Notes: generated from the sequence alone by a model not told the origin. A DNA stretch of 64,000 nucleotides from Escherichia coli (GCF_024502345.1 NZ_JALDNN010000001.1); one strand, 5' to 3'. Positions 9,484 through 47,782 are shown, counted from the stretch's first letter. Numbers and translations: made by a program.

Positions 9484-9578
<95 letters not shown>

Positions 9579-20144: not shown

Positions 20145-20220
20145 GCCCGGATAGCTCAGTCGGTAGAGCAGGGGATTGAAAATCCCCGTGTCCTTGGTTC
20201 GATTCCGAGTCCGGGCACCA
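20145..20220 (+). tRNA. pheU: tRNA-Phe (GAA anticodon)
   Basis: 76-nt GCCCGGATAGCTCAGTCGGTAGAGCAGGGGATTGAAAATCCCCGTGTCCTTGGTTCGATTCCGAGTCCGGGCACCA with anticodon loop TTGAAAA and 3-prime CCA; position after yjdC corresponds to pheU. Confidence 0.97.
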
Positions 20221-21071
20221 ATATTCATAAGGCCTCGCTGCAAAGCGGGGCTTTTTCCTTTTCTGGCTACGGTAGATTTCTGGTCGTTGCGGCACGTTAT
20301 TTGTTTGCTGGATTTCTCGCCATTTTCGCAGTTGTTCGTTACTTTTAGACACCTCAACATCCTTTGATGTACCTTTTCCTAACCTCACAGCTACGGTCTT
20401 TCTACGGTCCTCTACGATTCCTTTCTCTCAGAGCATTCATAATAAAGTAGAAAATACGGGGAAAACGGGGGAATTATCATTTCGCCCTAATCCGCAGGTC
20501 TTAACGTGATTTTGTCGCGGGGAATAAGGTGGGGAAATCCCCAATAGCAAGCGGGGAAATCTGGCAGCATACCCCCTCCACCATTCACATGGGGATCTTC
20601 ACCAGTCCGTCCACCTACAACAAGCTCTTCTTGCCCTTTCACTTCTTACCGTTTTCAGAATCCCCCGTTCTCCACGCCATCATAAAATGATTTATCCGTA
20701 AGCTTAACGTAATGGACTGTTGAACCTGAGTGTCCGCTGTGAGCGAAAAGCGGAACTTCTCACATAGGTAATGAAGCGTTTCCTAACGTCAGGGTGTACT
20801 AATCAACGAAGAGCAGGTCAGAGGACTCGAACCGCTTTCCTCTTCCATCTACGTAGAATTCCAAGAATTTATGTGCTTTCCAGTTACAATTTAGCCATGC
20901 TAAGTTAGAAAAAGCATTGAGTACCTTAGGATTGTATCGATGATACTCTAAGGATCTTGGAGGCTTGTGAGGCGTAAGGTTCAAAGCCAATAGTTTATTA
21001 ATAGTCACACAAGTGGCTCTATTTTTCGCCTACAAACCTATATTTTTCATACAAATAAAAGAAGTGTATTT

Positions 21072-22490
21072 ATGAATACTCAGCAAATTAAGGTTGGCAG
21101 TGTACCTGAAATTATTGAGCTATTACCAAACTCTAGCGAGCAGGCTGATTCTCATCCTTTCATCCTATCGGCAAACAGTGCATGGGGTGAACAGGGAGCA
21201 GAAATATCAATAGAGAGATTACGCCAAAATATCGAGCCTTGGCTAACAGCTCTCTTCCAATCCGAACATTTAAATTTATTGATAGGTGCGGGTTTAAGCA
21301 CGTCTATTCAAATATCGGCTACAGATTCACCTCCAGCTGGAATGGGTTGGATCAGCGATCTAGCCGTATGTAAAAGTGAAATAGATGCATTTTCTACTCT
21401 GGCTGCCAAAGCTGCAGGTCGCGATAACGGAAATATAGAAGATCAAATTAGAGCTATTAATGAACTTATTAAAGGGCTTGAAATTCTGACAGTGTTGAAT
21501 ACCCCTCAACCTGAAAATCCTCCAGCTCCTCATGCTGCTTATAGAAATCTAAAAACGGATTTAGAAATACTCAAGGGAGAGCTTTCTCGCTGCCTAGGTG
21601 AGTTTTCAAGATCTGTGAGTGCCGGAGAATACTTGATTAAAACTGCTGAACCAAAGCGTAAAGAGGAAACTTTCAACTATCTAGTTAGTTTCTTGATGAG
21701 CTTTGCAAGTAGGACCGCTACTCGCGATAGGTTGCATATTTTTACAACAAACTATGATCGCATTATTGAAGTAGGTGCTGAGCTTGCTGGTTTGAGACTT
21801 ATAGATCGCTTTGTAGGAAGTATCGCTCCAGTGTTTCGATCTTCAAGATTGGAGGTTGATTATCACTATAATCCTCCAGGAATTCGTGGCGAACCAAGAT
21901 ATTTAGAAGGCGTAGCGCGTTTTACTAAGCTTCATGGATCCCTTGATTGGCATGAACAAAATAGCGCGATTAGGCGCTTTGGTTTACCTTTTGGAGCACG
22001 TTCTGTTGAACCTTTTTTAGAAGCTGAAGGCCATCAAAGCAACAGCTTTGAACAACTTATGATTTACCCTAACTCAGTAAAAGATAGAGAAACTGCCGAG
22101 TACCCTTATGTTGAGCTATTTCGAGATCTAGCCGCAGCAACTAGCCGCCCAAATAGCACATTAGTCACCTATGGCTATAGCTTTGGTGATGAGCATATCA
22201 ACAGGGTAATTGAAGACATGCTTACAGTGCCTTCGACTCATGTAGTCATAATTGCCTTCGGAGATCCGCTTGGAAGAATCATAAATTTCATTAATAAGAG
22301 TGGAAGAAAAGCACAGATCACCCTATTAATGGGAGACCATTTAGGAGACCTCAAGACTTTAGTTGATAACTATTTACCTAAACCAGCTATTGATAAAGCA
22401 TCAATAAAAATGACTGAATTGCTTAAGCAAAGAGGATTTATCCAGCCCAAAGAATTAGGTAATTCAACTGGCTCCGAGGTATCACAATGA
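21072..22490 (+). CDS. SIR2-like NADase component of a SIR2-HerA anti-phage system
   Basis: 472-aa ORF with SIR2-family motifs GAGLS (in LLIGAGLSTS), TTNYD (in HIFTTNYDRII) and HGS (in TKLHGSLDW); translationally coupled to the downstream HerA-like gene. Confidence 0.8.
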   Translation: MNTQQIKVGSVPEIIELLPNSSEQADSHPFILSANSAWGEQGAEISIERLRQNIEPWLTALFQSEHLNLLIGAGLSTSIQISATDSPPAGMGWISDLAVCKSEIDAFSTLAAKAAGRDNGNIEDQIRAINELIKGLEILTVLNTPQPENPPAPHAAYRNLKTDLEILKGELSRCLGEFSRSVSAGEYLIKTAEPKRKEETFNYLVSFLMSFASRTATRDRLHIFTTNYDRIIEVGAELAGLRLIDRFVGSIAPVFRSSRLEVDYHYNPPGIRGEPRYLEGVARFTKLHGSLDWHEQNSAIRRFGLPFGARSVEPFLEAEGHQSNSFEQLMIYPNSVKDRETAEYPYVELFRDLAAATSRPNSTLVTYGYSFGDEHINRVIEDMLTVPSTHVVIIAFGDPLGRIINFINKSGRKAQITLLMGDHLGDLKTLVDNYLPKPAIDKASIKMTELLKQRGFIQPKELGNSTGSEVSQ

Positions 22491-24520
22491 GTTACTTACC
22501 AATAGAAAGATTAGAACAATTAAGAATTGGATCTGTTGGATTTGTATCACCTAATGAAATTAGAGTTTCTTTAGAGATTGACTCCCCTGATTCAGTGTCA
22601 CTTCAAGGCGGTTCCCCCCGCAATTTTCCTCGAATAAATAGTTATGTACTGATCAGTAGCGATGATGGATTTCTCGTCGGACAGGTTGAATGGATTGCCG
22701 TAGAACACTCTCCATACCCCAAAAGAAGAGGCTTACAAGATTTTGGCTTGATAGATCTTCCTTTTCCACTTAAAAAGCTCAGTATCAATCCCGTTGGTAC
22801 TTTGAGAGTCGATAGAAAAAACGAAGATTACAAGTTCACAAGAGGAACAGATGCTTTTCCCTCGGTTGGTGACTCCGTGCTCCTGCCTACTGACCGGCAA
22901 TTAAAATCAATAATAGAATCAGGTGACAATAGAAGAGTAAAAATAGGGGACAGCCCCCTAGCTAACAATGCGGAAATAAAAGTGGACCCTGATAGGCTTT
23001 TTGGACGACATTTAGCTGTTTTGGGCAATACAGGTAGTGGTAAATCATGCTCGGTTGCGGGGTTAATTCAATGGTCTTTAGATGCTGTTTTACAACAGGG
23101 ACAGATTCCAAATGCTCGGTTCATAATACTTGATCCAAATGGAGAATACAGTAGGGCATTCGGCCCAGAATCAAAATACAAGGGTAAGCTATTACGTGTA
23201 GAAGCTAACACTGGTGCTGAAGAGATAGATCTTAAAGTTCCGTCATGGTTATGGAATAGCTCTGAGTGGGGTGCTTTCACTCAAGCGAGTTCAAAAGTTC
23301 AACTTCCTTTACTACGCCGAGCTTTGAGGGCGATGAGAAATGATGTTTTATCAGAAGATGATGTGACAATCCAAGCGAAACACTTCTGCGGTATCCTACT
23401 CGTATCCATACGACAATTATCAAGCCAAGGCCAGATATATGTGAATGGCGGCCATGCCAAAGGTTTCGTTGATAGTTTAACGTCTTGGAATAATAGCCTG
23501 TCCACATTAAACGACAAAATCGATAACAAACCTTTCGATAATCTAATAAACACGATGAATGTGTATCTTTCCTCTCGTATAGGAATAAAATGGCCTGAAA
23601 AACCTGAAGTTTCAGATACTGATCAGTTGATTAATGAATTAAAAAATGCATATGAAACGCTTGGAGGTGATGAACAAGGACTTCTTCCAAAAAGTGAAGA
23701 TTCGCCTATTCGTTTTAAAGGGGATGATTTTGTCGCATACCTAGAAGCTCTAGCTCAAGAGACAGGCACAGAGCAATTCGTTGAATTCCTTTTGACTCGT
23801 ATTCGAACAATGCTAGGTGACACCCGTATAAGTGCAGTAACAAATGATTCGGAACAGCCTATCAGTTTAACTAATTGGTTAGACACTTTTCTCGGTAGAG
23901 ATGGACAAGGTTCCATAACTGTTATCGATTTATCGCTAGTCCCTAATGAAATAATACATTTGGTAACTGCTGTAATTTCCAGAGTAACTTTTGAAGCATT
24001 ACAACGTTATCGAAGACTTAAGGGGAAACCACTACCAACAGTTATGGTTGCAGAAGAAGCGCATACATTTATTAAACGCTACAAAGAAGATAGTGAGGGT
24101 CAGTCAGTCTCTGACGTATGCTGCAAAGTGTTTGAAAAGATCGCACGTGAAGGCAGGAAATTTGGGTTAGGTCTTGTAGTTTCTTCCCAACGACCCTCAG
24201 AGCTATCTCCGACTGTGTTATCTCAATGTAATACTTTTTTGTTGCACAGGATTAGTAATGATAGAGATCAAGAGCAAGTCCATAGACTTGTTCCCGATAA
24301 CATGAGGGGGTTGTTGAGGGAGTTGCCATCGCTACCATCTCGGCATGCCATTCTACTAGGATGGGCTTCTGAACTTCCGGTTTTAGTTAGAATGAAAGAG
24401 CTTACTGAAAAACAAAGACCACAATCTGACGATCCCGATTTTTGGGATGTGTGGTCTAACACTACAGAAGAGCCTCGCGAAGTTAATTGGCAACCAATAG
24501 CTGATGATTGGCAAAGTTAA
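22487..24520 (+). CDS. HerA-like FtsK/HerA-family ATPase of the SIR2-HerA system
   Basis: 677-aa ORF with Walker A GNTGSGKS, Walker B MVAEEAH and SSQRPSEL region; start overlaps the SIR2 stop (ATGA). Confidence 0.8.
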   Translation: MSYLPIERLEQLRIGSVGFVSPNEIRVSLEIDSPDSVSLQGGSPRNFPRINSYVLISSDDGFLVGQVEWIAVEHSPYPKRRGLQDFGLIDLPFPLKKLSINPVGTLRVDRKNEDYKFTRGTDAFPSVGDSVLLPTDRQLKSIIESGDNRRVKIGDSPLANNAEIKVDPDRLFGRHLAVLGNTGSGKSCSVAGLIQWSLDAVLQQGQIPNARFIILDPNGEYSRAFGPESKYKGKLLRVEANTGAEEIDLKVPSWLWNSSEWGAFTQASSKVQLPLLRRALRAMRNDVLSEDDVTIQAKHFCGILLVSIRQLSSQGQIYVNGGHAKGFVDSLTSWNNSLSTLNDKIDNKPFDNLINTMNVYLSSRIGIKWPEKPEVSDTDQLINELKNAYETLGGDEQGLLPKSEDSPIRFKGDDFVAYLEALAQETGTEQFVEFLLTRIRTMLGDTRISAVTNDSEQPISLTNWLDTFLGRDGQGSITVIDLSLVPNEIIHLVTAVISRVTFEALQRYRRLKGKPLPTVMVAEEAHTFIKRYKEDSEGQSVSDVCCKVFEKIAREGRKFGLGLVVSSQRPSELSPTVLSQCNTFLLHRISNDRDQEQVHRLVPDNMRGLLRELPSLPSRHAILLGWASELPVLVRMKELTEKQRPQSDDPDFWDVWSNTTEEPREVNWQPIADDWQS

Positions 24521-24941
24521 TTAACTTAACTAATTTTTAGTAGTGTTATAAGTAGTGGCTTATATCTGACATGACAGTTTAGGTTAGTAGTTTCAATCTA
24601 ACAGTAAGTGTCCACGGTGACGTTTTCATACTCAAATCTCCTGAAATGTGGGAGATTTGAGTATGGTTGTCCCTTATGAGCGAGGAGCGGAAGTTCTGCT
24701 TTAAGTGTATCAAACCCTCCAGCAAAGATGTTCTTGAATGTAATGCCATAATTTCCCTAACATTCCAGCACAAATCAATTAACTCTCAGTCCATAGTGTA
24801 TTTTACTTAAATTAAAATCAAATACTCTAGGAATTAAAATAACAAGATCACTTGCGATTATGCTATTTTAAATTAATATTTTTGTTTTTACTGGGGAACC
24901 TTCAAAACACGGAGCCAGATTTCTTCGTAGCTACCCTGTTG

Positions 24942-25766
24942 CTAGGGTTTCAAGTATTCCCCTAAAGGAAAGAAATTTTTTGACAACTTTTGGGATTCAG
25001 CAATTTTAACCAAATAAATATAGAATCCCAACAGAGCACTGTTCTCGCTTTCCCCCCTCGAATAGTGAACATGCCCAGGCACCTTCCGGATGAGGAAACC
25101 ATTATTTTTTACCAAATAATACCCTCTATCTAAAATTGTAATTACATCAGGCATATCATCTAAATCGATATTATTTCCAGTCATGTAATTAAACAGCGAA
25201 TCTCGTAAGGTACTTTCCTCTGGACCTTGGAAGGCTAGTAGTAAGAATGGTGTTTTTCTCAAGGTTGCACACATCCCTGAGATTTCCTCTACTAATTGCA
25301 CTGTATTTTGGGGAATATTTTCTTTCATAAAATAACCATCGTCAATACCGATTGGATTGATTCTTACCAAACCTTTTGACCTAACGCAAGCATCTAAGGT
25401 TGTCTTAAGGTTTGAAGCTCCTTCGGTCATTGAGCCAGTGTTTAATGAAGATTTACATTCAATTAACGCTAAAGCTGAATCGACAGGGACCATACACTGA
25501 TCTTTATCATAACTAAGTTTTAAAGAATGTTTCGAGTATATGATAATATCCATCTGACTTGAGAGATTATCCTTAGAGTCAAAAACCTGTCCTGATGTAA
25601 TATCTAAATTACTAGGGAGATTTGCTTTTAAAAATTCCCTTATTACAATTTCTCTAGCACTTCCTTTGCTACTCCCGTTCGTCGTTATGGATGACAAATT
25701 AAATGCTGAAACCAAAGATGCCGTATGGTTTTTTAAGTGTTTCTGGATTAATTTCATAAAGCTCAT
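24942..25766 (-). CDS. hypothetical protein, possible PD-(D/E)xK-like nuclease
   Basis: 274-aa ORF in AT-rich DNA convergent with herA; candidate motifs E (GSAREIVI), D (MDIIIYS) and ExK (ALIECKS); no family assigned with confidence. Confidence 0.5.
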   Translation of the reverse strand: MSFMKLIQKHLKNHTASLVSAFNLSSITTNGSSKGSAREIVIREFLKANLPSNLDITSGQVFDSKDNLSSQMDIIIYSKHSLKLSYDKDQCMVPVDSALALIECKSSLNTGSMTEGASNLKTTLDACVRSKGLVRINPIGIDDGYFMKENIPQNTVQLVEEISGMCATLRKTPFLLLAFQGPEESTLRDSLFNYMTGNNIDLDDMPDVITILDRGYYLVKNNGFLIRKVPGHVHYSRGESENSALLGFYIYLVKIAESQKLSKNFFPLGEYLKP

Positions 25767-26194
25767 TCCATTTTAATTTATCTACATCGCTTAAAGGCAA
25801 ATGATGCCACCGGCTACCAATTAAAAATTATCTCAACCTGAGAGATTTTTCCAGACTCCAAACGAAAATAAAAAACTACTCGTCACGTCCCTCCTGGCAC
25901 ATAGCCGACACCAAAACCAGCAACATATGGACAACGGTCCCTGCCCTGATGGCAGGTAATTGTATCAGACTTAAACACATATTATTTCTGTGAACTCCCC
26001 CCAACGGCAGTCCTTTCCTCTGAAGACCAGAACCAGACCGTAAAGCCTGCTCTTTCTGCATTTCCCGTATTAATTCATACCATGTGGCACCAGCATTCCC
26101 TTCGCCACACCAGAAAATCAATTCCCCAATAAAAAAGTGCCGTGCCGGGGATGGGTCAACCCTGACGTTCTTTACACCAGTCACAGGAGGTTAT

Positions 26195-27379
26195 ATGTCC
26201 ACCCCCAAACGCTTCCGTTTTACTAATCAGCTCATTAAATCCCTGCCCCCTAACACATCCGATGCACGCAGTACCGATGCCGAATACAGCGACACCGAGA
26301 TTTCCGGCCTCAAGTGTCTGGTCAGCAGAAGAGAAGGTCGTAAAAAGTTTTTGCTACGCTACCTTTATCATGGACGAAAACGCGCCATCGCCATTGGTCA
26401 CTGGCCTGAAGTGGACGTCAATCTTGCTCGTCAGATTGCCATAGAACACAAACGTTCCCTTGCCACCGGCACTGACCCTAAGCAGGAGCGTGAAAACAAG
26501 AGAATGGAGCTGACGTTCGATGAACTCTTTAATCAGCATTATCTGCCATGGGCAAAATCCGCTAAACGCAGTTGGGGAAAGGATGTTCAGCGCTACCGCG
26601 ATCATATCCGTCCCGCCATTGGTCAGAGGCTGCTGAGCGATATCACACCAGCGAGCATTCTGCGCCTTCAGCAGACGTTAAGTACTTCCCTGTCAGCAGC
26701 TACCTGTAACCGTGTCATCGTACTCATTAAAGCCGTCTTTACATGGGCCGGAAGGCAAAGCATGACCTCTGTCCATCCGGCAAGGGTGGTACAGCTTCTC
26801 AGGGAGAACAACGCCCGACAGCGCTATTTCACCGAGGACGAAATTCGTCGTATTTTTCTCTCCGCCGATAACGATACCAGCCCCGTCGCGGCCCGCTATG
26901 TCAAACTGTTGTTACTGACCGGCCTTCGTCGTGATGAGCTGCGTCTGGCTAAGTGGGAGCATGTTGACCCGGTTAAACGCACCCTGTGGCTCCCGGAAAC
27001 CAAGAATGGCTATGGGCGGATTGTTCACCTTAACTCACTGGCGATGGACGTAATCAGAACGCTGCCAACGCAGCGGGGAAATCCGTGGTTGTTTATCGGT
27101 AAAAAACAAGGAATGCCGCTGAATAACCCCGTTAAAGCCTTTCAGCGTATCGTTCGTCGGGCGGGAATTTTCGACCAGGAAGTGTGTATTCATACCTGCC
27201 GCCATTCGGTTGCCGCCCTCATCGTGTCCTACGGCGGAACACTGTATGACGTTCAGGCTCAACTGGGGCACCGCAGCAGTCAGTCTTCACAACGTTATGC
27301 GCATCTTCACCCTCAGCGCTTACAAAACACCAGTCAGTTACTGGCGGAAAGGATAACGGCTCAGCTACCGTCCTTGTGA
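26195..27379 (+). CDS. tyrosine-type site-specific integrase
   Basis: 394-aa ORF from ATG 26195 preceded by AGGAGG; catalytic boxes TGLRRDELRLAKWEHVD and HTCRHSVAAL...LGHRSSQSSQRYAHL (R, HxxR, Y). Confidence 0.85.
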   Translation: MSTPKRFRFTNQLIKSLPPNTSDARSTDAEYSDTEISGLKCLVSRREGRKKFLLRYLYHGRKRAIAIGHWPEVDVNLARQIAIEHKRSLATGTDPKQERENKRMELTFDELFNQHYLPWAKSAKRSWGKDVQRYRDHIRPAIGQRLLSDITPASILRLQQTLSTSLSAATCNRVIVLIKAVFTWAGRQSMTSVHPARVVQLLRENNARQRYFTEDEIRRIFLSADNDTSPVAARYVKLLLLTGLRRDELRLAKWEHVDPVKRTLWLPETKNGYGRIVHLNSLAMDVIRTLPTQRGNPWLFIGKKQGMPLNNPVKAFQRIVRRAGIFDQEVCIHTCRHSVAALIVSYGGTLYDVQAQLGHRSSQSSQRYAHLHPQRLQNTSQLLAERITAQLPSL

Positions 27380-27434: not shown

Positions 27435-27791
27435 TCAGAACGGGATGGCCCCATATTCTTCATCCGGCACCCGGTTATCATCAAATCTGTTATAGAGTTC
27501 ACGAGCACACTCGCGCGCGTCTTTAATAGACATACGAGGGAACCTGCCGAGGGGTTCATAATAGCAGGCCCCTTCAAGCGTATAACGAGCCAGGAATTTA
27601 ATCTCACCGTTGGCAATGACGGCCCGGAGCGCAGGCTCGCTGCCATCGAAGATTTCACGAGAAATGCCGTGATAAAGGCACTCCGCCAGTGTGTTAACCA
27701 GAGCGTAATCATTGAATGAGGTTTTTTCTTCATTTTCGCTGCTGATAGCGTGAGGAAAACCGTCATAGTACTGGTCTGATTCAAAAATCAT
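27435..27791 (-). CDS. hypothetical protein
   Basis: 118-aa ORF directly downstream of and co-oriented with the DUF927-like gene. Confidence 0.45.
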   Translation of the reverse strand: MIFESDQYYDGFPHAISSENEEKTSFNDYALVNTLAECLYHGISREIFDGSEPALRAVIANGEIKFLARYTLEGACYYEPLGRFPRMSIKDARECARELYNRFDDNRVPDEEYGAIPF

Positions 27792-29838: not shown

Positions 29839-31251
29839 TTACCCCATCGCCCGGTTAACGACTTCGTGGTAACGCGCCGGGGAAGCGTGCAAGTAAAGCT
29901 CCGTTACTTTGATAGTGCTGTGACCCAATAAGTCTTTGACGGTGTGAATGTCGGCCCCGCTCTCAATGAGCTTTGTCGCAAAGGTATGACGCATCTCATG
30001 GATGGTGAACGGTGGAATACCCGCAGCCTCACAAAGTCGTTTTTGCAGGCGACGCGGCTCAGCAACCGGATTGTCGGTTCCCTTGCCCGGAAATACCCAG
30101 CCTTCATCACCCAGATGCTGACGCTGTTCTGTCAGAAGAACGAAAGCCTTATCACATACCGGTACACGGCGTAGTTTGCCGTTTTTGGTATGGCGAAGGG
30201 TGATAACCTTGCGGCTCCAGTCCACATCTTCAAGACGAAGGTGACGGGTTTCCCCCAGACGCAGCCCCGTCAGGGCAAGGAACATGAGAAGAGCAAGGGC
30301 TTCATGATCGGGTTTACCATTACGCCAGCGCTCACAGACGTCCATCCAGCGCTGAAGCTGGGAGTCATCCATGGCACGGCGATCTGACGTCACTTCAGGC
30401 AGCGCTTTGATATAAAGCGCCGGAGAGCGGCTGATGTATCCCATGCGTATAGCCCAGGTAAACACCGCTTTAATGAGCGCCAGATGGCGGTTGCGGGTGG
30501 CAGGCTTGAGATCGAGATTATGCAGATAGCTCAGAATATCTGCCTCCGTCATACCTGCCAGCTTTTTGTCACCGAGAAGAGGGCGCAGGTATTTACGGAT
30601 CTTAGAAAGGTCGGTGTTAGCTGAACGCTTAACGCCCGTGCTGAGTACGCTTTTCTCATACTCATCCACAAGCTCATTAAACGTCATTTTACTGTGAGTA
30701 AGAAAACGCTCACCGTAAGCCTCAACGGCGGTCTTGAGCTCCTGAATTATTTTAAAGGCATGCTCCCTTGCATCTTTAATTGAAATTTCCGGGTAGCCTC
30801 CTACGGCAACGTAGATATTCTTTCCGCGAATACTTTTGCGGACAATAAATTTAATGCGACCTGATGGATAGAATATTGCCTTAAGTCCGGTTAACTTCTT
30901 ATCGCTGGTCTCGATTGTTTGTGCAGCTTGTACTGCACGGATTTTATATTCATCAAAAAGGGCTTTAGTAAAAACACCTCCAGTATTTTTAGGTGCAACC
31001 CCTGGATATTCTACAACATCAGATACTCCAGAGTCGGAATACCCCTGAGCTTCCACATCTACATTGAAGGAATTTTTATGAGCAGCTGTGATGCTCTTTT
31101 CATCCAGCACTTGCGTTATTTTATTTAAAGGGTAATTAACTTTCATAATATGTACATGGTCCTCTGAAAATTCAGATGATAATGAGTAATTTAATATGTC
31201 GGCCAACAATGGGATAAGCTTATTTATTCGTGGCATCACTTTCAAGCCCAT
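29839..31251 (-). CDS. tyrosine-type site-specific integrase
   Basis: ORF with catalytic boxes ALTGLRLGETRHLRLEDVD and HEMRHTFATKLIESGADIHTVKDLLGHSTIKVTELYLH; true start codon uncertain. Confidence 0.85.
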   Translation of the reverse strand: MGLKVMPRINKLIPLLADILNYSLSSEFSEDHVHIMKVNYPLNKITQVLDEKSITAAHKNSFNVDVEAQGYSDSGVSDVVEYPGVAPKNTGGVFTKALFDEYKIRAVQAAQTIETSDKKLTGLKAIFYPSGRIKFIVRKSIRGKNIYVAVGGYPEISIKDAREHAFKIIQELKTAVEAYGERFLTHSKMTFNELVDEYEKSVLSTGVKRSANTDLSKIRKYLRPLLGDKKLAGMTEADILSYLHNLDLKPATRNRHLALIKAVFTWAIRMGYISRSPALYIKALPEVTSDRRAMDDSQLQRWMDVCERWRNGKPDHEALALLMFLALTGLRLGETRHLRLEDVDWSRKVITLRHTKNGKLRRVPVCDKAFVLLTEQRQHLGDEGWVFPGKGTDNPVAEPRRLQKRLCEAAGIPPFTIHEMRHTFATKLIESGADIHTVKDLLGHSTIKVTELYLHASPARYHEVVNRAMG

Positions 31252-31423: not shown

Positions 31424-32468
31424 GGCTTTGTTGAATAAATCAGATTTCGGGTAAGTCTCCCCCGTAGCGGGTTGTGTTTTCAGGCAATACGCACGCTTTC
31501 AGGCATACCTGCTTTCGTCATTTTGTTCAGCGCTCGTACCAGGGCCATAGCCTCCGCAACCTGACCATCGTAGTCACGCAGCGTCAGTGAACCCCCGAAC
31601 AGCTGTTTTACCCGGTACATCGCCGTTTCCGCTATCGAGCGACGGTTGTAATCTGTTGTCCATTTCCACCGCGCATTACGCTGATTAGCCACTGCACGGT
31701 TACGGTCTGCATATTCACCGGGCCAGTAACCCGCACCTTTTCGGGGAGGGATAAGCGCGCTGATTTTCTTACGCCGCAGTTCATCGTGACAGAGCCGGGT
31801 GTCGTAAGCGCCGTCTGCCGATGCTGCCCTGATTTTTCTGTGAGTCTGCCGGATAAGACCCGGGAAGGCTTCTGAGTCCGTCACATTGTTCAGCGACAGG
31901 TCAGCGCAGATGATTTCATGTGTTTTACTGTCAACGGCGAGATGCAGCTTACGCCAGATACGGCGGCGTTCCTGGCCATGCTTTTTGACTTTCCACTCGC
32001 CTTCACCGAAGACCTTCAGCCCGGTGGAATCAATTACCAGGTGTGCGATTTCACCCCGGGTGGGCGTTTTGAAACTGACGTTAACCGACTTTGCCCGCCT
32101 GCTGACACAGCTGTAATCCGGGCAGCGTAGCGGAACGTTCATCAGAGAAAAAATGGAATCAATAAAGCCCTGCGCAGCGCGCAGGGTCAGCCTGAATACG
32201 CGTTTAATGACCAGCACAGTCGTGATGGCAAGGTCAGAATAGCGCTGAGGTCTGCCTCGTGAAGAAGGTGTTGCTGACTCATACCAGGCCTGAATAGCTT
32301 CATTATCCAGCCAGAAAGTTATGGAGCCACGGTTGATGAGGGCTTTATTGTAGGTGGGCCAGTTGGTGATTTTGAACTTTTGCTTTGCCACGGAACGGTC
32401 TGCGTTGTCGGGAAGATACGTGATCTGATCCTTCAACTCAGCAAAAGTTCGATTTATTCAACAAAGCC
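31424..32468 (-). mobile_element. IS5-family, IS903-group insertion sequence
   Basis: 18-bp terminal inverted repeats GGCTTTGTTGAATAAATC at 31424..31441 and 32451..32468, flanked by a 9-bp direct duplication GCCCTGAAG (31415..31423 and 32469..32477). Confidence 0.9.
31480..32436 (-). CDS. IS903-group transposase (DDE)
   Basis: 318-aa ORF filling the IS; C-terminal segment DGAYDTRLCHDELRRKKISALIPPRKGAGYWPGEYADRNRAVANQR recalled as IS903-type transposase. Confidence 0.85.
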   Translation of the reverse strand: MKDQITYLPDNADRSVAKQKFKITNWPTYNKALINRGSITFWLDNEAIQAWYESATPSSRGRPQRYSDLAITTVLVIKRVFRLTLRAAQGFIDSIFSLMNVPLRCPDYSCVSRRAKSVNVSFKTPTRGEIAHLVIDSTGLKVFGEGEWKVKKHGQERRRIWRKLHLAVDSKTHEIICADLSLNNVTDSEAFPGLIRQTHRKIRAASADGAYDTRLCHDELRRKKISALIPPRKGAGYWPGEYADRNRAVANQRNARWKWTTDYNRRSIAETAMYRVKQLFGGSLTLRDYDGQVAEAMALVRALNKMTKAGMPESVRIA

Positions 32469-35287: not shown

Positions 35288-35314
35288 AAACCTGCTTTCG
35301 GGCAGGTTTTTTTT
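35288..35314 (+). terminator. rho-independent terminator
   Basis: AAACCTGC-TTTCG-GGCAGGTTT hairpin followed by a T run. Confidence 0.8.
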
Positions 35315-35396
35315 ACTTTTTTATTTTTCAGGCGGACAAACCCTGTCCGGGGGCTTCCTTAAACTGTCAGGTCCAATATCTGCAATGAGGTGAAAT

Positions 35397-36146
35397 ATGG
35401 CTACCTACCGACACGACCCTGATCTTGAATTTCTGCGCCACTGCCATCGTGACGATCTGGATTTACTGGTTTCTGTGCTTATCTGCGATCCGAAAGACGG
35501 ACTGGCACGCATCACGGAAACGCTGACCTATGATCCTCAGTATAAAAAACACAAGCCCAACCACCCGCGCTACTGGGATGCCATTGCCGCCGAGGTTCAG
35601 ACGTTTGGGGCGAACAGCTTTGCCACGCTGCTCCGCTGGGGTAAAGGGGTGCTGTACCGGGAAATTCTCACCGATGCCTGCGATAAAATGAAGGTGAACT
35701 ACAACAACAAATCCAGTGTTGAAACCATTGAAATGAATCTGCTGATGAAGATCCTGGAGAAAAGTCTTGAGAAGATGACGCCTGACCAGCTAAAGACCGT
35801 GGCGGAAGAATTGCAGACAGGCTACAGCAACCCCACGCCGGAGTTGCTGACCATGGCAATCCAGGCGGGGATAAAAACATCCGGGTTTGCGGCCTATCAG
35901 ATGGCACTTGTTGTCACAAATGGTGTGGCGAAAGCCCTGTTAGGCAGAGGGCTGACCGTTGCAGGAAATGCCATGCTGACGCGTACCATGGGCGCTTTTG
36001 CCGGTCCCGTGGGCTGGGTGCTCAGTTCTCTCTGGCTGCTGATTGATTTAGCCGGTCCCGCATACCGGGTGACGCTACCATCCTGCATTTTTATTGCCTA
36101 CATGCGCCAGAAGCATCTTTATTCACCTGAGAATACTGACGTTTAG
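35397..36146 (+). CDS. YaaW-like protein (UPF0174/DUF3944 family)
   Basis: 249-aa ORF; N-terminal DLEFLRHC and C-terminal GPVGW...AYRVTLP segments resemble E. coli YaaW as I recall it. Confidence 0.55.
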   Translation: MATYRHDPDLEFLRHCHRDDLDLLVSVLICDPKDGLARITETLTYDPQYKKHKPNHPRYWDAIAAEVQTFGANSFATLLRWGKGVLYREILTDACDKMKVNYNNKSSVETIEMNLLMKILEKSLEKMTPDQLKTVAEELQTGYSNPTPELLTMAIQAGIKTSGFAAYQMALVVTNGVAKALLGRGLTVAGNAMLTRTMGAFAGPVGWVLSSLWLLIDLAGPAYRVTLPSCIFIAYMRQKHLYSPENTDV

Positions 36147-36248
36147 CACTTACATTTAAGGTATTCAGACTTTAAAAAACTTCAGAGGGCGGACAAATCC
36201 TGTCCGCTACTGCTGGCATCATTTCCCGGCTAAATTCGGAAATGATGT

Positions 36249-36962
36249 ATGACGCTGATAACACAAGAAAACGAACATGACAGACTGGCAACCCGCCTTT
36301 CCATCATCCTGAGCCGTTTGTTTCAGGGTGAAAAGCTGCATATCGGGACGCTGGCAGAAGAATTTGGAGTGACGACGCGAACGCTGCGACGGGATTTCAA
36401 CGTCCGTCTGACCTACCTTGATATTGAACAGAGCAACGGCGTGTATCAGCTTGCCTCACATTACTTTCGTCGCCGCACGGAACGGGATATGAAGATACTG
36501 GCGAGGTTGCTGCATCTTGACCGTCTGTTACCCGCGATGGATGCCAAACTACTGAGCCTGATGCTTGACGGGGAACGTCCCTCGCCATACAGGATTATGC
36601 TACCGGAGCCGCGCCAGAAACCCACCCTTTTCGGTGATTTCAGCAGACTGACGCTCGCCATACTTAACCAGACCCAGGTGCGTATCAGAACCGACGAAAA
36701 CGTCAGCCATACCGTTCATCCCTACCGTCTGCTTTGCAGCCATGCGGAGTGGTTTCTTGCCGGATGTACGTCATCGGGCGTGTTCGTTATTTCCCTGTCC
36801 CGAATCAGGCTGGTTGAGGTATTACCGGATACAACGTTTGAGATCGATAACACACTCATTTCGCTGATTGAACAGTCTGACTTTATGGAAGCCTTACCCC
36901 ACATGAACATTATTCATCAGATAATGCATTACGGGAGTAAACAGACGAATAATCGTAATTAA
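36249..36962 (+). CDS. WYL-domain transcriptional regulator (BrxR/CapW-like)
   Basis: 237-aa ORF with N-terminal HTH (HIGTLAEEFGVTTRTLRRDF) and WYL-type motif (HPYRLLCSHAEWFLAGC); sits upstream of restriction genes. Confidence 0.7.
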   Translation: MTLITQENEHDRLATRLSIILSRLFQGEKLHIGTLAEEFGVTTRTLRRDFNVRLTYLDIEQSNGVYQLASHYFRRRTERDMKILARLLHLDRLLPAMDAKLLSLMLDGERPSPYRIMLPEPRQKPTLFGDFSRLTLAILNQTQVRIRTDENVSHTVHPYRLLCSHAEWFLAGCTSSGVFVISLSRIRLVEVLPDTTFEIDNTLISLIEQSDFMEALPHMNIIHQIMHYGSKQTNNRN

Positions 36963-37002
36963 AATCACAACATATTATTAGTGATGATTAAATCACATTA
37001 AC

Positions 37003-37332
37003 ATGATAAGTGAGAAAGTTATGATTATCGATAAAGAATACGCACTTGTAAATGCAACAGCAAGACTTAACACTGACCTGAGGGATTATGAATATGAAAT
37101 AAACAACGCCGCCATCATAACATTTGGCAATGACCTCATTGAGGTAATCGTATATCAGTTCAGCTTTGTCATCAGCATCAGGGCAGAGGGTGAAAAAATA
37201 AAGCACGGCCTACTTGTTAACTTCGGTAAAAATATAGCAAGACAGGTTTCATCACTTTGTGCATCCGCAATGCGAGTCTACCCGAATGAAAAACACAAAC
37301 CGAGCCGTCAGCTTTTCCATTGCATAAATTAG
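37003..37332 (+). CDS. hypothetical protein
   Basis: 109-aa AT-rich ORF between the WYL regulator and the type IV restriction gene; may be non-coding. Confidence 0.3.
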   Translation: MISEKVMIIDKEYALVNATARLNTDLRDYEYEINNAAIITFGNDLIEVIVYQFSFVISIRAEGEKIKHGLLVNFGKNIARQVSSLCASAMRVYPNEKHKPSRQLFHCIN

Positions 37333-37393
37333 TTTGTGCAAAGACTGTACTACCGACACGCAATAAATTAAAATAGGCCAGCTAATATAACAT

Positions 37394-39271
37394 ATGAGGT
37401 TTATGATGGCTGGCCAGTATGAAAAAGCAATAACGATAAAACAAGCGATAGATTCAATTAATTTACGCCACTATCTTCTGCCTGCAATTCAGAGGAAGTT
37501 CGTCTGGAGCAGCAGTCAAATATGTTTGCTGTTTGATTCCATCATGCGAGACTACCCGATAAACTCTTTCATGATGTGGGATATCCGTAGTGCCAGTATT
37601 AAAAATGATTACAAATTCTATGAATTCCTGAAAGAATACTGTCAGCGATTTAATGAAGAAAACCCCTGCGTAGCAACAAATGCTGGATTTCATGATTTCA
37701 AGGCGGTGATTGATGGTCAGCAGCGTCTCACATCATTATATATTGGATTGTGTGGAACGTATGCGTATAAACAGCCCCGGGTGTGGTGGCCTTCGGCACA
37801 GGATGATCGCATCCTGCCGCCCAGAAAGCTTTACGTCGATTTAACAGCGCCACTTAATTCAGACGATGAGCTCATGATGAAGTATAACTTCAGGTTCCTG
37901 ACCGACAAGCAATACGCTGATTCACTTACAGACAACAAGCATCACTGGTTCTGCCTGCACGAAATATTCAAATACGAGCAACATGATTCGCCTGATGATA
38001 TTTTATTTAACGTTGTCGTACCAGAACTCGAAAAAAGAGGACTCATTTCCAGTGAATTTTCCAGAAAAACATTACTGAGACTTTATACAAAAATAAGAAC
38101 TGAGAACATCATCCACTACTTCAATGAGAGTAGTCAGGATATTGACCATGTGCTGGATGTTTTCATACGCACGAACAGCGGGGGGACAAAACTTGAGTTC
38201 TCCGACTTACTGATGTCAATAGCGGTAGCGCACTGGCAGGGTGATTTCAGAAGAGAACTGGATGAACTGACAAAAAACATTTATCAGAATAATGAAATGG
38301 GGTTTTATATTGAAAGAGACTGGTTCTTAAAAACCAGCCTGATGCTTATTGACTCTGACGTCCGGTTCAAAGTAAAAAACTTCACTTCAGAGGAGGTCGG
38401 TAAGATACAACAACAATGGTCTGAAATAAAATCCTGCATCAAGGAGACTTTTATTCTTATCAGGCGATTCGGCATCAATCCACAGTCTTTGATATCTAAA
38501 AATGCAGTCATTCCTGTGGTCTACTGGCTTTACAAAAAGCAAACCAGTGGACATCCATTATATACAACGATTAACCTCCTGAATAAAAACCACAATGAAC
38601 GCTCAGTAATTAGCCAGTGGTTTTACATGGTACTTCTGAAAGGGATCTTTGGAAGCCAGGCAGATGCGCTACTCACGAGTATCAGAGATGTAATGAAAAA
38701 TAGTCTTTCAGATATTCACTTTCCTCTTGAAAAGATTATTGACAGATATAAAGGCTCGAATAAAGACCTCAGATTTGACGACGAATACATCGAAAGCCTT
38801 CTCAATATCAGATATGGCGAAGGTCGTTGCCGCGCACTATTGCATCTTCTGTTCCCTGAAATGAATCCGACCGAGGTGTTTCATATTGATCACCTTCACC
38901 CAAGAAATCACTTCTCAAAGAAATATCTTGAAAAATTAGATTATGTTGCGAACTCACCAGAGAACCTCAGCTTTTATGAAAACCCGGAACACTGGGACAC
39001 CATACCTAATCTTCATTTACTGAATCATTCTCAGAATATAAGTAAACAGGATACTTCCCTGAAACAATGGCTATCTCAGCCATCAAACAACTATTCGCCA
39101 TCAATGCTGTTAGTTTCAGATGAAAATATTGAGTTCAGTCGCTTCCCGGAATTCTACAATGAACGAAGAAACGCCCTGAAGCAAAGACTACTGAATCGGG
39201 TATTTCTTACAACAAAAATAGATTCATCACCATCCACAATCGATACGGATGAAGAAATTCTCACCGACTGA
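37394..39271 (+). CDS. GmrSD-family type IV restriction endonuclease (DUF262 + DUF1524)
   Basis: N-terminal DUF262 hallmark DGQQR (in KAVIDGQQRLTSLYIG) and C-terminal His-Me finger-like HIDHLHPRNH; likely start at ATG 37406 after GAGG. Confidence 0.8.
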   Translation: MRFMMAGQYEKAITIKQAIDSINLRHYLLPAIQRKFVWSSSQICLLFDSIMRDYPINSFMMWDIRSASIKNDYKFYEFLKEYCQRFNEENPCVATNAGFHDFKAVIDGQQRLTSLYIGLCGTYAYKQPRVWWPSAQDDRILPPRKLYVDLTAPLNSDDELMMKYNFRFLTDKQYADSLTDNKHHWFCLHEIFKYEQHDSPDDILFNVVVPELEKRGLISSEFSRKTLLRLYTKIRTENIIHYFNESSQDIDHVLDVFIRTNSGGTKLEFSDLLMSIAVAHWQGDFRRELDELTKNIYQNNEMGFYIERDWFLKTSLMLIDSDVRFKVKNFTSEEVGKIQQQWSEIKSCIKETFILIRRFGINPQSLISKNAVIPVVYWLYKKQTSGHPLYTTINLLNKNHNERSVISQWFYMVLLKGIFGSQADALLTSIRDVMKNSLSDIHFPLEKIIDRYKGSNKDLRFDDEYIESLLNIRYGEGRCRALLHLLFPEMNPTEVFHIDHLHPRNHFSKKYLEKLDYVANSPENLSFYENPEHWDTIPNLHLLNHSQNISKQDTSLKQWLSQPSNNYSPSMLLVSDENIEFSRFPEFYNERRNALKQRLLNRVFLTTKIDSSPSTIDTDEEILTD

Positions 39272-45433: not shown

Positions 45434-45654
45434 ATGTCAGATAAAAGAACAATGCGCTACCGCAATTTATGGGTAAGATTGTATCTTTTAACCTGCATCA
45501 GACCTGTTATGATCGATGAGGCGCTGGTTAATGTTAATGCTAACTGGATGAGTTTTAATCGCTGATTCAGACAATTAGCGTCCAGAACTCACAGAAACCA
45601 GTGCTTGATTTTGGATGGTAAAGTGCTGAACGGACGTATCACAGGAGAATGCTT

Positions 45655-45993
45655 ATGAGCGTAACTATAAAAGACGATCGACTCCGTACCATCGCTACCT
45701 TTGACGGTAAAACCCTGAAAGACGACCGGCTCAGGACCATCGCAACGTTTGACGGTAAAACCCTGAAAGACGACCGGCTCAGAACCATCTCAACTTTTGA
45801 CGGTAAAACCCTGAAAGACGACCGACTCCGCACCATCGCTACCTTTGATGGCAAGACCCTGAAAGACGATCGACTCCGCACCATCGCAACATTTGATGGT
45901 AAAACACTTAAAGACGATCGACTCAGAACCATCGCGACAGTTAATGGTAATGTTAGTATTGTTGTTTTGGCGTTTGCTGCTCGGCTATTTTAG
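45655..45993 (+). CDS. hypothetical tandem-repeat protein
   Basis: ORF after AGGAGA with five full and one partial 16-aa repeats (DDRLRTIATFDGKTLK), encoded by 48-bp tandem DNA repeats; could instead be a non-coding minisatellite. Confidence 0.4.
   Translation: MSVTIKDDRLRTIATFDGKTLKDDRLRTIATFDGKTLKDDRLRTISTFDGKTLKDDRLRTIATFDGKTLKDDRLRTIATFDGKTLKDDRLRTIATVNGNVSIVVLAFAARLF
45667..45960. repeat. 48-bp tandem repeat array, about six copies
   Basis: Near-identical units AAAGACGAYCGRCTCMGNACCATCGCNACNTTTGAYGGYAARACCCTG repeated head to tail. Confidence 0.85.
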
Positions 45994-46270
45994 GGCTAAG
46001 AGCCTATCTCAACAGAGATTAATACTTTACCCAAAAGATATAATATCAGTATCTAAAAGCCTGCACCGTCTGATTTTTAGTCATTGAATCGCGAGAACGG
46101 GAGATAATTTCTCTTCTATGGGTATAGGCTCATAATGGTAGGATTCTGGTAGCTTCGAAACGCCGTATTTAAGCAATACTTAAGTCATGAAGAACCAAAC
46201 TTAAACATTTTTCTCAAGGTAAACCAGTAAAAAACTGTTAGTGCTGATGGATCGTTTGGGCTCTTTTAAA

Positions 46271-46319
46271 GGGATTGAAAATCCCCGTGTCCTTGGTTCG
46301 ATTCCGAGTCCGGGCACCA
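46271..46319 (+). repeat. 49-bp direct repeat of the tRNA-Phe 3-prime end (island junction, att-site core)
   Basis: GGGATTGAAAATCCCCGTGTCCTTGGTTCGATTCCGAGTCCGGGCACCA is identical to tRNA-Phe positions 20172..20220. Confidence 0.95.
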
Positions 46320-46333
46320 AATTCATATCAACG

Positions 46334-46358
46334 GACCTCCACGGAGGTCCGTTTTTCG
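46334..46358 (+). terminator. hairpin terminator after the partial tRNA copy
   Basis: GGACCTCC-ACG-GAGGTCCG followed by TTTTTCGTTT. Confidence 0.7.
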
Positions 46359-46516
46359 TTTCAGAACGCCACAATTTAAGCGTTCTGCCTCCAAATCAAT
46401 TCTACCGAACTCAACCAGATTCCCCCCACATCAACCCCATTGTGTGGGTATAATTGCGGGTATACCCCAGTTCGACAGAATTTGTACCCTCTTTAACGCA
46501 TTCAGAAGGCTGAACT

Positions 46517-47782
46517 ATGGCACTGACTGACGCAAAAATCCGGGCTGCAAAGCCCACTGACAAGGCTTATAAACTCACTGACGGGGCCGGCATGTTCCTG
46601 CTGGTTCATCCTAATGGTTCCCGTTACTGGCGTCTCCGTTATCGTATTCTGGGTAAGGAGAAAACCCTGGCACTTGGTGTGTATCCGGAAGTTTCTCTCT
46701 CCGAAGCTCGTACAAAACGGGATGAGGCCCGAAAACTGATTTCGGAGGGGGTTGACCCTTGCGAACAGAAAAGAGCTAAAAAAGTAGTCCCTGATTTACA
46801 ACTCTCTTTTGAACATATTGCACGACGCTGGCATGCCAGTAATAAACAATGGGCACAATCACACAGCGATAAAGTACTCAAAAGCCTCGAGACACACGTT
46901 TTCCCCTTTATCGGCAACCGGGATATCACAACACTCAGTACCCCGGACCTGCTTATCCCTGTTCGTGCTGCAGAAGCTAAACAAATTTATGAAATCGCCA
47001 GTCGTCTGCAGCAAAGAATATCTGCTGTAATGCGTTATGCCGTACAGTCTGGCATCATCAGATATAACCCGGCTCTGGATATGGCTGGTGCATTGACCAC
47101 GGTAAAACGCCAGCATCGCCCTGCTCTGGATCTTTCACGCCTGCCTGAACTTCTGTCGCGTATTGACGGTTATAAAGGCCAGCCTGTCACCCGACTGGCA
47201 GTTATGCTGAATTTACTGGTTTTTATTCGTTCCAGTGAACTCAGATATGCCCGCTGGTCTGAAATTGATATTGACAATGCCATGTGGACTATTCCAGCCG
47301 AACGCGAACCTCTGCCAGGCGTAAAATTTTCATACCGGGGCTCCAAGATGCGAACACCACATCTTGTGCCACTCAGCCAACAGGCTGTAGCCATACTGGC
47401 AGAACTTCAGACATGGGCAGGTGAAAATGGTCTGATCTTTACGGGAGCACATGACCCACGTAAACCAATCAGTGAAAACACCGTAAATAAAGCCCTGAGG
47501 GTTATGGGGTATGACACAACCCAGGATGTCTGTGGTCATGGATTCCGGGCGATGGCATGTAGTGCATTAATAGAATCAGGTTTGTGGTCCCGCGATGCTG
47601 TGGAACGCCAGATGAGCCATCAGGAGCGTAATGGTGTACGTGCTGCGTATATCCATAAAGCCGAACATCTGGAAGAACGTCGACTTATGCTACAGTGGTG
47701 GGCCGATTTTCTGGATGCAAACAGAGAAAGATTTATCAGTCCATTTGAATATGCAAAGATTAATAATCCATTAAAACAATAA
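46517..47782 (+). CDS. P4-type tyrosine integrase
   Basis: 421-aa ORF MALTDAKIRAAKPTDKAYKLTDGAGMFLLVHPNGSRYWRLRYR (P4-like arm-binding N-terminus) and catalytic HGFRAMA...RAAYIH; 197 bp after the tRNA-derived repeat. Confidence 0.9.
   Translation: MALTDAKIRAAKPTDKAYKLTDGAGMFLLVHPNGSRYWRLRYRILGKEKTLALGVYPEVSLSEARTKRDEARKLISEGVDPCEQKRAKKVVPDLQLSFEHIARRWHASNKQWAQSHSDKVLKSLETHVFPFIGNRDITTLSTPDLLIPVRAAEAKQIYEIASRLQQRISAVMRYAVQSGIIRYNPALDMAGALTTVKRQHRPALDLSRLPELLSRIDGYKGQPVTRLAVMLNLLVFIRSSELRYARWSEIDIDNAMWTIPAEREPLPGVKFSYRGSKMRTPHLVPLSQQAVAILAELQTWAGENGLIFTGAHDPRKPISENTVNKALRVMGYDTTQDVCGHGFRAMACSALIESGLWSRDAVERQMSHQERNGVRAAYIHKAEHLEERRLMLQWWADFLDANRERFISPFEYAKINNPLKQ

Follow-up and report, generated by a model that had tools for sequence, protein, structure and literature searches.

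What occupies the tRNA-Phe locus in this stretch of Escherichia coli DNA (64,000 nucleotides of GCF_024502345.1 NZ_JALDNN010000001.1, hereafter the window), and to which of the foreign elements found there does the partial copy of the tRNA gene between them belong? The original prediction, made from the sequence alone, had described two tandem genomic islands, namely island A, directly after the intact tRNA gene and thought to lack an integrase, and island B, which begins with a P4-type integrase beyond a repeat of the tRNA 3′ end. That islands can stack at a single tRNA gene has been documented many times, and tandem islands at tRNA-Phe are ordinary, textbook cases; what is worth keeping from a tandem accretion at such a hotspot is, in this instance, a rule relating repeat length to element type, an exchangeable cargo slot and a link to the pipolins. 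We consider it probable that the window represents a tandem accretion at the pheU gene, in which a complete integrative element, island A, belonging to a family that recurs but has no name, is followed by island B. The principal units of the locus are the following.

20145..20220, plus strand: tRNA-Phe(GAA), pheU, called by ARAGORN; its 3′ 49 nt (20172-20220) are the attL identity block of island A, with dsbD/dicD flanks as in K-12
20221-46320: island A, the two copies of its repeat starting 26,099 bp apart
20221..20754, plus strand: left arm of island A, comprising the tRNA trailer, in which a terminator hairpin lies at 20229-20254, and candidate arm-type motifs, conserved in relatives
20755..25887: variable cargo slot, guanine plus cytosine (GC) content 37-41%, borders taken from alignments with relatives
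46134..46320, plus strand: right arm and attR of island A, with the arm at 46134-46270 and the partial tRNA-Phe copy at 46271-46320
46321..50935: left module of island B, comprising a pheU-type trailer, a terminator (46330-46353), the integrase IntB and two further genes

The only tRNA gene detected in the window by ARAGORN, tRNA-Phe(GAA), is intact, and the genes flanking it within the window are frdABCD, ampC, efp, groSL, aspA, dcuA, cutA, dsbD and dicD (yjdC). This neighbourhood, from frdABCD to dsbD-dicD, identifies it as E. coli pheU. Comparison with the K-12 locus gave the order dicD-pheU-yjdQ-cadCBA with nothing inserted, so that cadCBA does follow pheU in that strain, as had been expected. 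The noted recurrence of the last 49 nt of the tRNA at 46271..46319 was recovered by a repeat finder as an exact 50-nt direct repeat (family D2; 20172-20221 and 46271-46320, spacing 26,099 bp), consisting of 49 nt of the tRNA 3′ end and one fortuitous matching base past the CCA. A direct repeat derived from the 3′ part of a tRNA gene is thus present and the target gene is left intact. From GGGATTGAAAATCCCC, which is the anticodon stem-loop short of one base, the identity block extends to the CCA; the right arms of all A-type elements terminate in a TTTTAAA-like sequence directly before it. Williams (2002) is reported to have associated identity blocks of this kind, beginning at the anticodon stem, with integrases whose crossover falls within the anticodon loop. 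When up to three mismatches are allowed, the final 23 nt of tRNA-Phe occur only at these two sites in the window (0 expected, 100 shuffles); a third fragment, which might have divided island A or marked the end of island B, was not found in the window at the same tolerance, nor was the gapped 22-nt tRNA variant typical of P4-type islands. Terminator-like hairpins lie 3′ of both repeat copies (20229-20254 and 46330-46353). The second of these precedes, as had been noted, a P4-type integrase 197 bp past the repeat (open reading frame (ORF) start at 46517), and the DNA right after the tRNA carries defence cargo and not an integrase, also as described (PADLOC: SIR2, 2.7e-154; HerA, 2e-252).

The interval between the repeats is found as a unit elsewhere. 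A core segment of island A (26100-31300), used as query against 5,426 complete E. coli genomes, was recovered from 133 of them, the element lying at pheU or pheV, in every case from a chromosome and never from a plasmid, with at least 80% of the segment covered in 68 genomes. At least 68 genomes keep the integrase Int1, a helicase-type protein and the second recombinase Rec2, described below, intact and in synteny. In strain MB15 an island A element of 20,982 bp, bounded on each side by an exact 49-bp repeat, separates pheV from yghD, while elements at pheU are present in MARGA_3, AW1.7, 97.3, G3/10, cS33a and 2018-01-1CC; the unit is missing at the related sites of K-12 and NCTC9699. Since it is present in MB15, MARGA_3 and others and nothing stands in its place in K-12, the 20.2-46.3 kb segment is a discrete mobile unit and not backbone, and the claim of tandem foreign elements at pheU holds. 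The right arm and repeat also occur in MARGA_3, G3/10 and EC17CM2, and with a variant arm in MB15 and in two further comparison loci, L015 and L016. The family extends beyond E. coli: an identical Int1 protein is recorded in Citrobacter freundii and other Enterobacteriaceae, and A-type attR sites turned up among representative genomes from the genera Silvania, Mixta, Kluyvera, Pseudocitrobacter, Enterobacter and Citrobacter. In Mixta tenebrionis (L032, 8209-9602), the end of hsdR is followed by a 49-bp partial tRNA-Phe and then by a P4-type integrase sharing 41% identity with IntB, and the same stacking therefore recurs in another genus. The family is recurrent, with a 49-bp tRNA-Phe site and a cargo slot; no published name or description of it was found in searches on DUF927, DUF2787, pheU and an E. 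coli defence-island survey.

Does island A encode its own integrase? The genes which bear on this lie beyond the cargo slot, in a core with a GC content of about 50%.

25888-26194: conserved region upstream of Int1, from the alignment with relatives
26195..27379, plus strand: Int1, island A integrase, 394 amino acids (aa), with Arm-DNA-bind_3, central and tyrosine-recombinase catalytic domains (Pfam)
27435..27791, minus strand: Arm-DNA-binding-domain-only protein, 118 aa, after the RefSeq names of orthologues; 40% identical to the Rec2 Arm region along 52 aa
27841..29769, minus strand: DUF927 primase/helicase-type protein; NCBIfam Cch1 of the staphylococcal cassette chromosome mec (SCCmec), 2.2e-22; phrog_8841 DNA primase/helicase, 1e-41
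29839..31251, minus strand: Rec2, second arm-type tyrosine recombinase (Pfam), a paralogue of Int1 (31% identical), conserved in relatives

Int1, a tyrosine integrase, is the first conserved gene past the cargo slot in all relatives compared, and its position is conserved although its distance from the tRNA is not, the start codon lying 5,974 bp away in the window, 1.65 kb away in relatives with small cargo and about 0.75 kb away in those without cargo. It shares 25% identity with IntB, 33% with the integrase of a Vibrio pipolin and at most 31% with any phage integrase. Its conserved position, together with the clean insertion of the element elsewhere, shows that the description of island A as lacking an integrase, and hence as degenerate or trans-mobilised, was wrong; Int1 is the island's own, and the whole unit is cleanly inserted in MB15. 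The older reading, or its variant in which the SIR2-HerA genes form a separate small island before an integrase-led one, could draw on the fact that, inside the island, no integrase lies within 6 kb of either repeat, and on the GC content of 37-41% over 21-26 kb, which rises at the integrase. We regard it as very improbable, given that no third tRNA-derived repeat lies near 25.9 kb even with three mismatches allowed, that both sides of the SIR2-HerA block are conserved in relatives with other cargo, that 68 or more genomes have the integrase, the helicase and the second integrase intact and in the same arrangement, and that the whole 20221-46320 unit is what is inserted relative to empty sites.

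The composite character which had been suspected for island A is instead explained in part by its cargo slot, the borders of which were set by aligning the tRNA-to-Int1 interval across seven genomes. The left arm is 88-93% identical in AW1.7, 97.3 and G3/10 up to about 20742-20758; the match reaches approximately 20750 in four genomes and ends at 20482 in MARGA_3 and MB15. Between the left arm (~20221-20750) and the conserved region at 25888-26194, the DNA is unrelated among relatives, with at least six different contents. In the window the slot holds three genes.

21072-22490, plus strand: SIR2 (PADLOC, 2.7e-154)
22487-24520, plus strand: HerA (PADLOC, 2e-252)
24942-25766, minus strand: PD-(D/E)xK / NucC-like nuclease (PADLOC, 5.8e-27)

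The SIR2 and HerA genes belong to defence subfamilies, are adjacent and overlap by 4 nt, and their products are predicted to have anti-phage activity. The contents of the slot across the loci compared are as follows.

SIR2-HerA and nuclease: this window and the Logan contig L025
SIR2-HerA, with IS903B replacing the nuclease: cS33a; the SIR2-HerA cargo is matched at 99.3% in fM51a
Anti-phage dCTP deaminase: AW1.7
LeoA-type three-gene set: 97.3
Restriction endonuclease with ADH and LysR: G3/10
Single small hypothetical gene, the commonest content: MARGA_3, MB15, 2018-01-1CC, MMC-J-0020, MRY15-117, 1916D18 and YZ_2_2
Nothing: L015 and L016

As judged from these alignments, the SIR2-HerA block is an exchangeable cassette inside island A and not a separate island, so that the suspicion of a composite stands for the cassette in its slot and falls for a second island, the flanks belonging to the conserved element and a third repeat being absent. 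The cluster to which the SIR2 protein belongs is spread over Citrobacter, Salmonella, Vibrio, Providencia and Proteus. The A-type family is a compact, recurrent carrier of anti-phage functions, and its slot may be useful for finding new defence genes, for example the small hypothetical gene which is its commonest occupant.

The left arm, which precedes the slot, contains the motif CTACGGT at 20267, 20391 and 20402, with a variant CTACGAT just past the third copy, as well as CGGGGAAA-type motifs (20267-20566). These clusters may be arm-type integrase sites or iterons; no match to either motif was noticed in the right arm of island A.

The ownership of the 49-nt repeat was approached through other loci at which A-type and P4-type elements are stacked. 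Islands at pheV with P4-type integrases are flanked by repeats of 19-23 bp (PMC11537424). Where an A-type element is next to the tRNA, the junction repeat is 49 bp long, whereas a P4- or CP4-type island next to the tRNA ends in 21-23 bp, after which the left arm of the A-type element begins. The pheV island of NCTC9699, whose integrase module is 99.96% identical to that of island B, ends beside yghD with only TTCGATTCCGAGTCCGG-CACCA. When a synthetic query was composed of a P4/CP4-type right end, the short repeat and the island A left arm, 80% or more of it was matched in 21 genomes. MMC-J-0020 and MRY15-117 each have an intact A-type element on the distal side of a CP4-type island, and the junction contains only 21-23 bp of the tRNA; the A-type element of YZ_2_2, likewise distal to a P4/CP4-type island, is decayed. 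The junctions of these stacked loci indicate that the repeat is the attR of the element on its left, being 49 bp long for A-type and 21-23 bp long for P4-type elements. The 49-nt repeat of the window therefore belongs to island A. This provides a simple way to dissect stacked islands at pheU and pheV.

The same query also uncovered a locus of enterocyte effacement (LEE) in similar company. In E. coli O103:H2 str. 12009 (L019, ~20430-20913), the distal island, which carries the LEE type III secretion genes, is preceded by a 22-nt partial tRNA copy and opens with a left arm similar to that of island A, the match being 91% identical over the whole synthetic query and reaching about 475 bp into the A-type left arm. 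An att arm or an integration system may therefore be common to LEE islands and A-type elements.

With the boundaries of island A set, its relationship to described element types rests on the remainder of its gene content.

31424..32468, minus strand: insertion sequence (IS) of the IS5 family (IS903B-like), with a transposase ORF at 31480-32436 (NCBIfam IS5, 7.9e-106) and 33-nt terminal inverted repeats
32800-33153, plus strand: orphan of 117 aa, start inferred from the annotation of orthologues
33146-33577, plus strand: orphan of 143 aa, from RefSeq annotation of orthologues
33624-34052, plus strand: DUF2787 protein, from RefSeq annotation of orthologues
34111-34575, plus strand: LRAT-family protein, from RefSeq orthologues, start inferred from their annotation
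34554-34793, plus strand: small DeoR/helix-turn-helix (HTH) protein, from RefSeq annotation of orthologues
34868-35254, plus strand: hypothetical protein, first gene of a conserved defence-associated block (34868..39271)
35397-36146, plus strand: JukA-like/DUF3944 (YaaW) protein (PADLOC JukA, 3.5e-72)
36249-36962, plus strand: WYL-HTH regulator (PADLOC WYL, 3.2e-15)
37003-37332, plus strand: hypothetical protein of the defence-associated block
37394-39271, plus strand: DUF262/HEC-05 protein (PADLOC HEC-05, 3.9e-231)
39475-41031, plus strand: hsdM (TIGR00497, 9e-194)
41028-42200, plus strand: hsdS, by position and RefSeq annotation of orthologues
42317-45433, plus strand: hsdR (TIGR00348, 6e-219)
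45649..45993, plus strand: '5-fold beta-flower' protein gene, the last of island A, after the RefSeq name of orthologues; kept in several relatives

The defence-associated block at 34868..39271 is conserved in relatives, and hsdM, hsdS and hsdR occur together as a type I restriction-modification system, with TIGR00497 and TIGR00348 scoring above their cut-offs. The IS5-family copy between Rec2 and the orphans is missing at that site in MB15, AW1.7 and most relatives, and the alignments on its two sides overlap by 8 nt, which hints at a target duplication. The JukA-like gene adjoins the WYL-HTH regulator, and no JukB partner was identified in the island A core. The beta-flower gene is built of 48-nt (16-aa) tandem units in six to eight head-to-tail copies (45615-45998; repeat family D1).

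The closest described relatives of such a gene set are found among the pipolins. The core of gammaproteobacterial pipolins comprises two integrases, one of them of the IntSXT type and close to the att site, together with DUF2787, a WYL protein, orphan genes and the polymerase piPolB (PMC11551731). A homologue of the DUF2787 protein led to a locus of Vibrio proteolyticus (L014) with the order integrase, orphan, orphan, DUF2787 ... piPolB (PF03175). The arm-type integrase, DUF2787 and two orphans of island A are homologous to and syntenic with those of that locus, and island A has a WYL regulator as well. Amino acid identities are 33% for Int1, 30% for the 143-aa orphan, 27% for the 117-aa orphan and 38% for DUF2787, and this span of 27-38% equals the range between Escherichia and Vibrio pipolins (PMC11551731). 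Pipolins, like island A, integrate at tRNA genes with direct repeats, carry an arm-type, 'IntSXT-like' integrase near att and a second tyrosine recombinase, and join a conserved core, to which DUF2787, a WYL regulator and a pair of syntenic orphans belong, to a defence cargo that varies and has type I restriction systems among its contents. Unlike them, island A lacks piPolB, encodes a DUF927 helicase in its stead and targets tRNA-Phe, while its second recombinase is an arm-type paralogue of Int1 and not of the IntP2 type (PMC11551731). No piPolB is encoded in the 20.2-46.3 kb segment, each ORF of at least 300 aa being otherwise assigned (SIR2, HerA, Int1, DUF927, Rec2, IS5 transposase, DUF262, HsdM, HsdS and HsdR). 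With no family-B polymerase, island A falls outside the pipolins as these are defined. On its predicted gene content, it resembles the pipolins without their hallmark polymerase, and they are the closest described family; rare 'piPolB-less pipolin-like islands' have been mentioned in passing, without a description (PMC11551731). The A-type family links the pipolins to helicase-based elements and bears on the question of whether piPolB defines that group.

The DUF927 protein points towards these helicase-based elements. Its orthologues carry PF06048, and its matches in the PDB are 5dgk (SCCmec Cch; 1.1e-14) and 8tch (a staphylococcal pathogenicity-island protein; 7e-12). The homology to SCCmec Cch, to a staphylococcal island protein and to a phage primase/helicase suggests replication after excision, and the DUF927 protein is presumed to be the replication initiator of the excised island A. 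SCCmec and the staphylococcal pathogenicity islands (SaPIs), whose Cch/Rep-type helicases are self-loading, are, like island A, integrative and non-conjugative, with a DUF927/Cch-type helicase beside recombinase genes; SCCmec, by contrast, uses serine Ccr recombinases, and hosts and targets differ. When set against the phage-inducible chromosomal islands (PICIs; 10-15 kb, with int, alpA, pri-rep and packaging genes), island A encodes an integrase, a helicase and a small HTH protein, but is 21-26 kb in size and carries several unassigned orphans. NCBIfam and PHROG scans of island A brought up no packaging or interference genes like those of SaPIs and PICIs, and no structural genes of a phage or satellite. 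A relaxase or type IV secretion system family, such as would mark an integrative and conjugative element (ICE) or integrative and mobilizable element (IME), was likewise not among its NCBIfam and PHROG matches or the RefSeq annotations of its orthologues, from which a cryptic oriT could escape. Hallmark genes of an ICE, IME or PICI were not found, and we rejected an identity as ICE or IME, as well as that of a gamma-mobile-trio or three-recombinase element, for which the GmtY match is marginal (E 6e-4) and the gene order differs.

The P4-type islands at pheV and pheU (GI-pheV, CP4-like; PMC11537424) resemble island B in that the integrase lies directly past the tRNA copy, and the same module heads pheV islands. 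Island A differs from them in its repeat of 49 bp as opposed to 19-23 bp, and in the sharing of only 25% identity between Int1 and IntB. In neither island were the P4 satellite genes psu, delta, sid, alpha, epsilon or alpA detected (NCBIfam, PHROGs and RefSeq orthologue annotation), and we rejected a P4-like satellite identity for both, as only the integrase is P4-like. Defence hotspots in P2 prophages and P4 satellites, as well as 'integrase-only' E. coli defence islands, have been described (PMC10121019). They share with island A a fixed position with conserved flanks, occupied by a strain-specific anti-phage system; the slot of island A, unlike these hotspots (PMC10121019), lies between attL and the integrase, and its carrier is no recognisable phage, satellite, ICE or IME.

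In what order did the two islands arrive? The original prediction had island B integrating first and island A later, and on our reading the arrival of B, or of a B-like island, before A is likely. The left module of B stands alone at pheU, with the same IS1 boundary, in ET450, 30COLEC and ES7, so that B first and A later is the simplest order, albeit not a proven one. The DNA to the right of the island A attR is the usual E. coli pheU trailer, found also in K-12, which keeps the integrase remnant yjdQ, and island A has perfect repeats and intact genes as opposed to the IS-riddled island B, both of which support the same order. The site of A needs the anticodon region, and A can thus only use an intact tRNA.

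Several observations weigh against this account or parts of it. The two orders give the same final structure, the short core of B lying inside the attR of A, and the earlier claim thus stands as plausible and falls short of proof. Loci at pheU with A alone exist (MARGA_3, AW1.7), and a variant, A′, is found at pheV both without B on its right (L015) and with it (L016). The left module of B is 99.9% identical across backbones that differ by approximately 1.2%, which argues that B too has moved recently. The right end of island B and the cadCBA region lie outside the window, and the choice of Int1 rather than Rec2 as the acting recombinase is one that we infer. A search for the attP junction of an excised island (right arm, 49-bp block, left arm) gave 0 matches among viral and Joint Genome Institute (JGI) metagenome contigs, where absence proves little. 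The identical final structure, the A-only loci, the A′ variant and the recent mobility of B speak for the reverse order, in which A entered pheU first and B later integrated into the attR of A, which holds the 21-23 bp core of B. We consider this order unlikely, as in every stacked locus whose order can be read from the repeat length (L019, L020, L027 and L028) it is the P4-type island that adjoins the intact tRNA, as B-only loci share the IS1 boundary, and as B is more decayed than A.

The junction between A and B occurs in seven other genomes (97.5-99.6% identity), at pheU in G3/10 and at pheV in EC17CM2, and in G3/10 this array comes with another cargo in its slot. The A-B array may therefore have been imported as one block by homologous recombination through flanking conserved DNA, or the cargo of A may have been swapped in by the same route; the backbone, about 1.2% divergent from all comparators, contrasts with island parts that are 99-99.9% identical. 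If so, the history of this strain could not be read from the order in which the islands integrated. We regard an import of this kind as conceivable though somewhat unlikely, given that some site-specific event must have made the array once, and that the perfect 50-nt repeats and the clean insertions elsewhere demonstrate site-specific integration in the A family. Backbone identity was discarded as a means of choosing the closest relative or fixing the order: positions 1-20144 are 98.6-98.9% identical to every E. coli strain compared, all being equally divergent (~1.1-1.4%) and hence uninformative.

Under the preferred order, with B or a B-like island at pheU first, Int1 would recombine the 49-bp tRNA-Phe segment from the anticodon stem to the CCA. 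Island A would enter the intact tRNA, bringing a new tRNA 3′ half and its own terminator and pushing B distally, while the displaced chromosomal 3′ half would remain as attR at 46271-46319. The exchangeable cargo slot lies between attL and int, with SIR2-HerA and the nuclease as its present content. A wider reading, which we put forward as tentative and in its conjunction doubtful, is that island A represents an unnamed, still active, pipolin-related family in Enterobacterales. In such a family the piPolB replicase would have been exchanged for a DUF927 helicase of the Cch/SaPI-Rep type, the target would be the 49-bp anticodon-to-CCA site in tRNA-Phe genes, the interval from attL to the integrase would be reserved as a swap-in slot for anti-phage cassettes, and the element would replicate after excision and, as satellites do, ride on a helper. 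The second integrase and the Arm-only protein might then serve for directionality control or cassette exchange.

Island B, insofar as it lies within the window, comprises the following.

46517-47782, plus strand: IntB, P4-type integrase, 421 aa, sharing 54.9% identity over 97% with the Int protein of phage P4 (NC_001609)
48104-49603, minus strand: phosphoethanolamine transferase, left module
49763-50503, minus strand: outer-membrane beta-barrel protein, left module
50936-51379: IS1 fragment, right boundary of the left module
51446-52566: IS3-family element (NCBIfam)
53563-56064 and 57160-59655: two heavy-metal P-type ATPases (NCBIfam)
56140-56592 and 60891-61253: regulator-sized ORFs of the metal-resistance block
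59841-60845: ORF which matches by position the cation-diffusion transporter of identical contigs
62167-63939: PDC-S06 candidate defence ATPase (PADLOC, 1.3e-236)

IntB shows full-length similarity to the P4 family and has the N-terminal Arm-binding domain; the domains Arm-DNA-bind_3, Phage_int_M and Phage_integrase were read on the L016 protein of identical length (421 aa), and the NCBIfam model PRK09692 scored 248.8 bits, under its curated cut-off of 434 bits. The left module is 99.9% identical to modules directly past intact pheU (ET450, 30COLEC and ES7) or pheV (NCTC9699), a near-identity at the two sites which points to recent horizontal spread. The 52.6-64 kb segment is 100% identical to two records of 250-270 kb from E. 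coli strain 44, and the Pfam assignments MerR, HTH_20/HTH_5 and Cation_efflux were taken from identical metagenomic contigs. In these contigs a pair of genes resembling a cyclic-oligonucleotide-based anti-phage signalling system (CBASS; CD-NTase and Cap15) lies just past the position at which the window ends. No right-end repeat of island B was found within the window, and no complete E. coli genome covered at least 80% of 45.4-64 kb. As the P4-type module is split by IS1 and IS3 from a metal block like that of strain 44, island B is a mosaic.

In K-12 (L030, 4692-5051), the pseudogene yjdQ is a remnant of the C-terminus of an IntB-like integrase (~58% amino acid identity to window 47583-47782), and the pheU trailer is 94% identical to window 46271-46452, indicating that even 'empty' pheU loci bear the scar of an old P4-type island. 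In MARGA_3, cadCBA lies directly past island A. IS1-bounded deletions extend from the islands into the backbone in G3/10 (L012, 40342-41171) and cS33a (L001, 42398-43420), where cadCBA and adjacent genes have been lost up to ghoS or yjdI. On the other side of the tRNA, and bearing no relation to the islands, yjeJ is flanked by two long inverted-repeat pairs (60 nt with 82% and 44 nt with 95% complementarity; window 8178-8292 and 9477-9591), which resemble E. coli backbone repeats of the repetitive extragenic palindrome (REP) or bacterial interspersed mosaic element (BIME) type.

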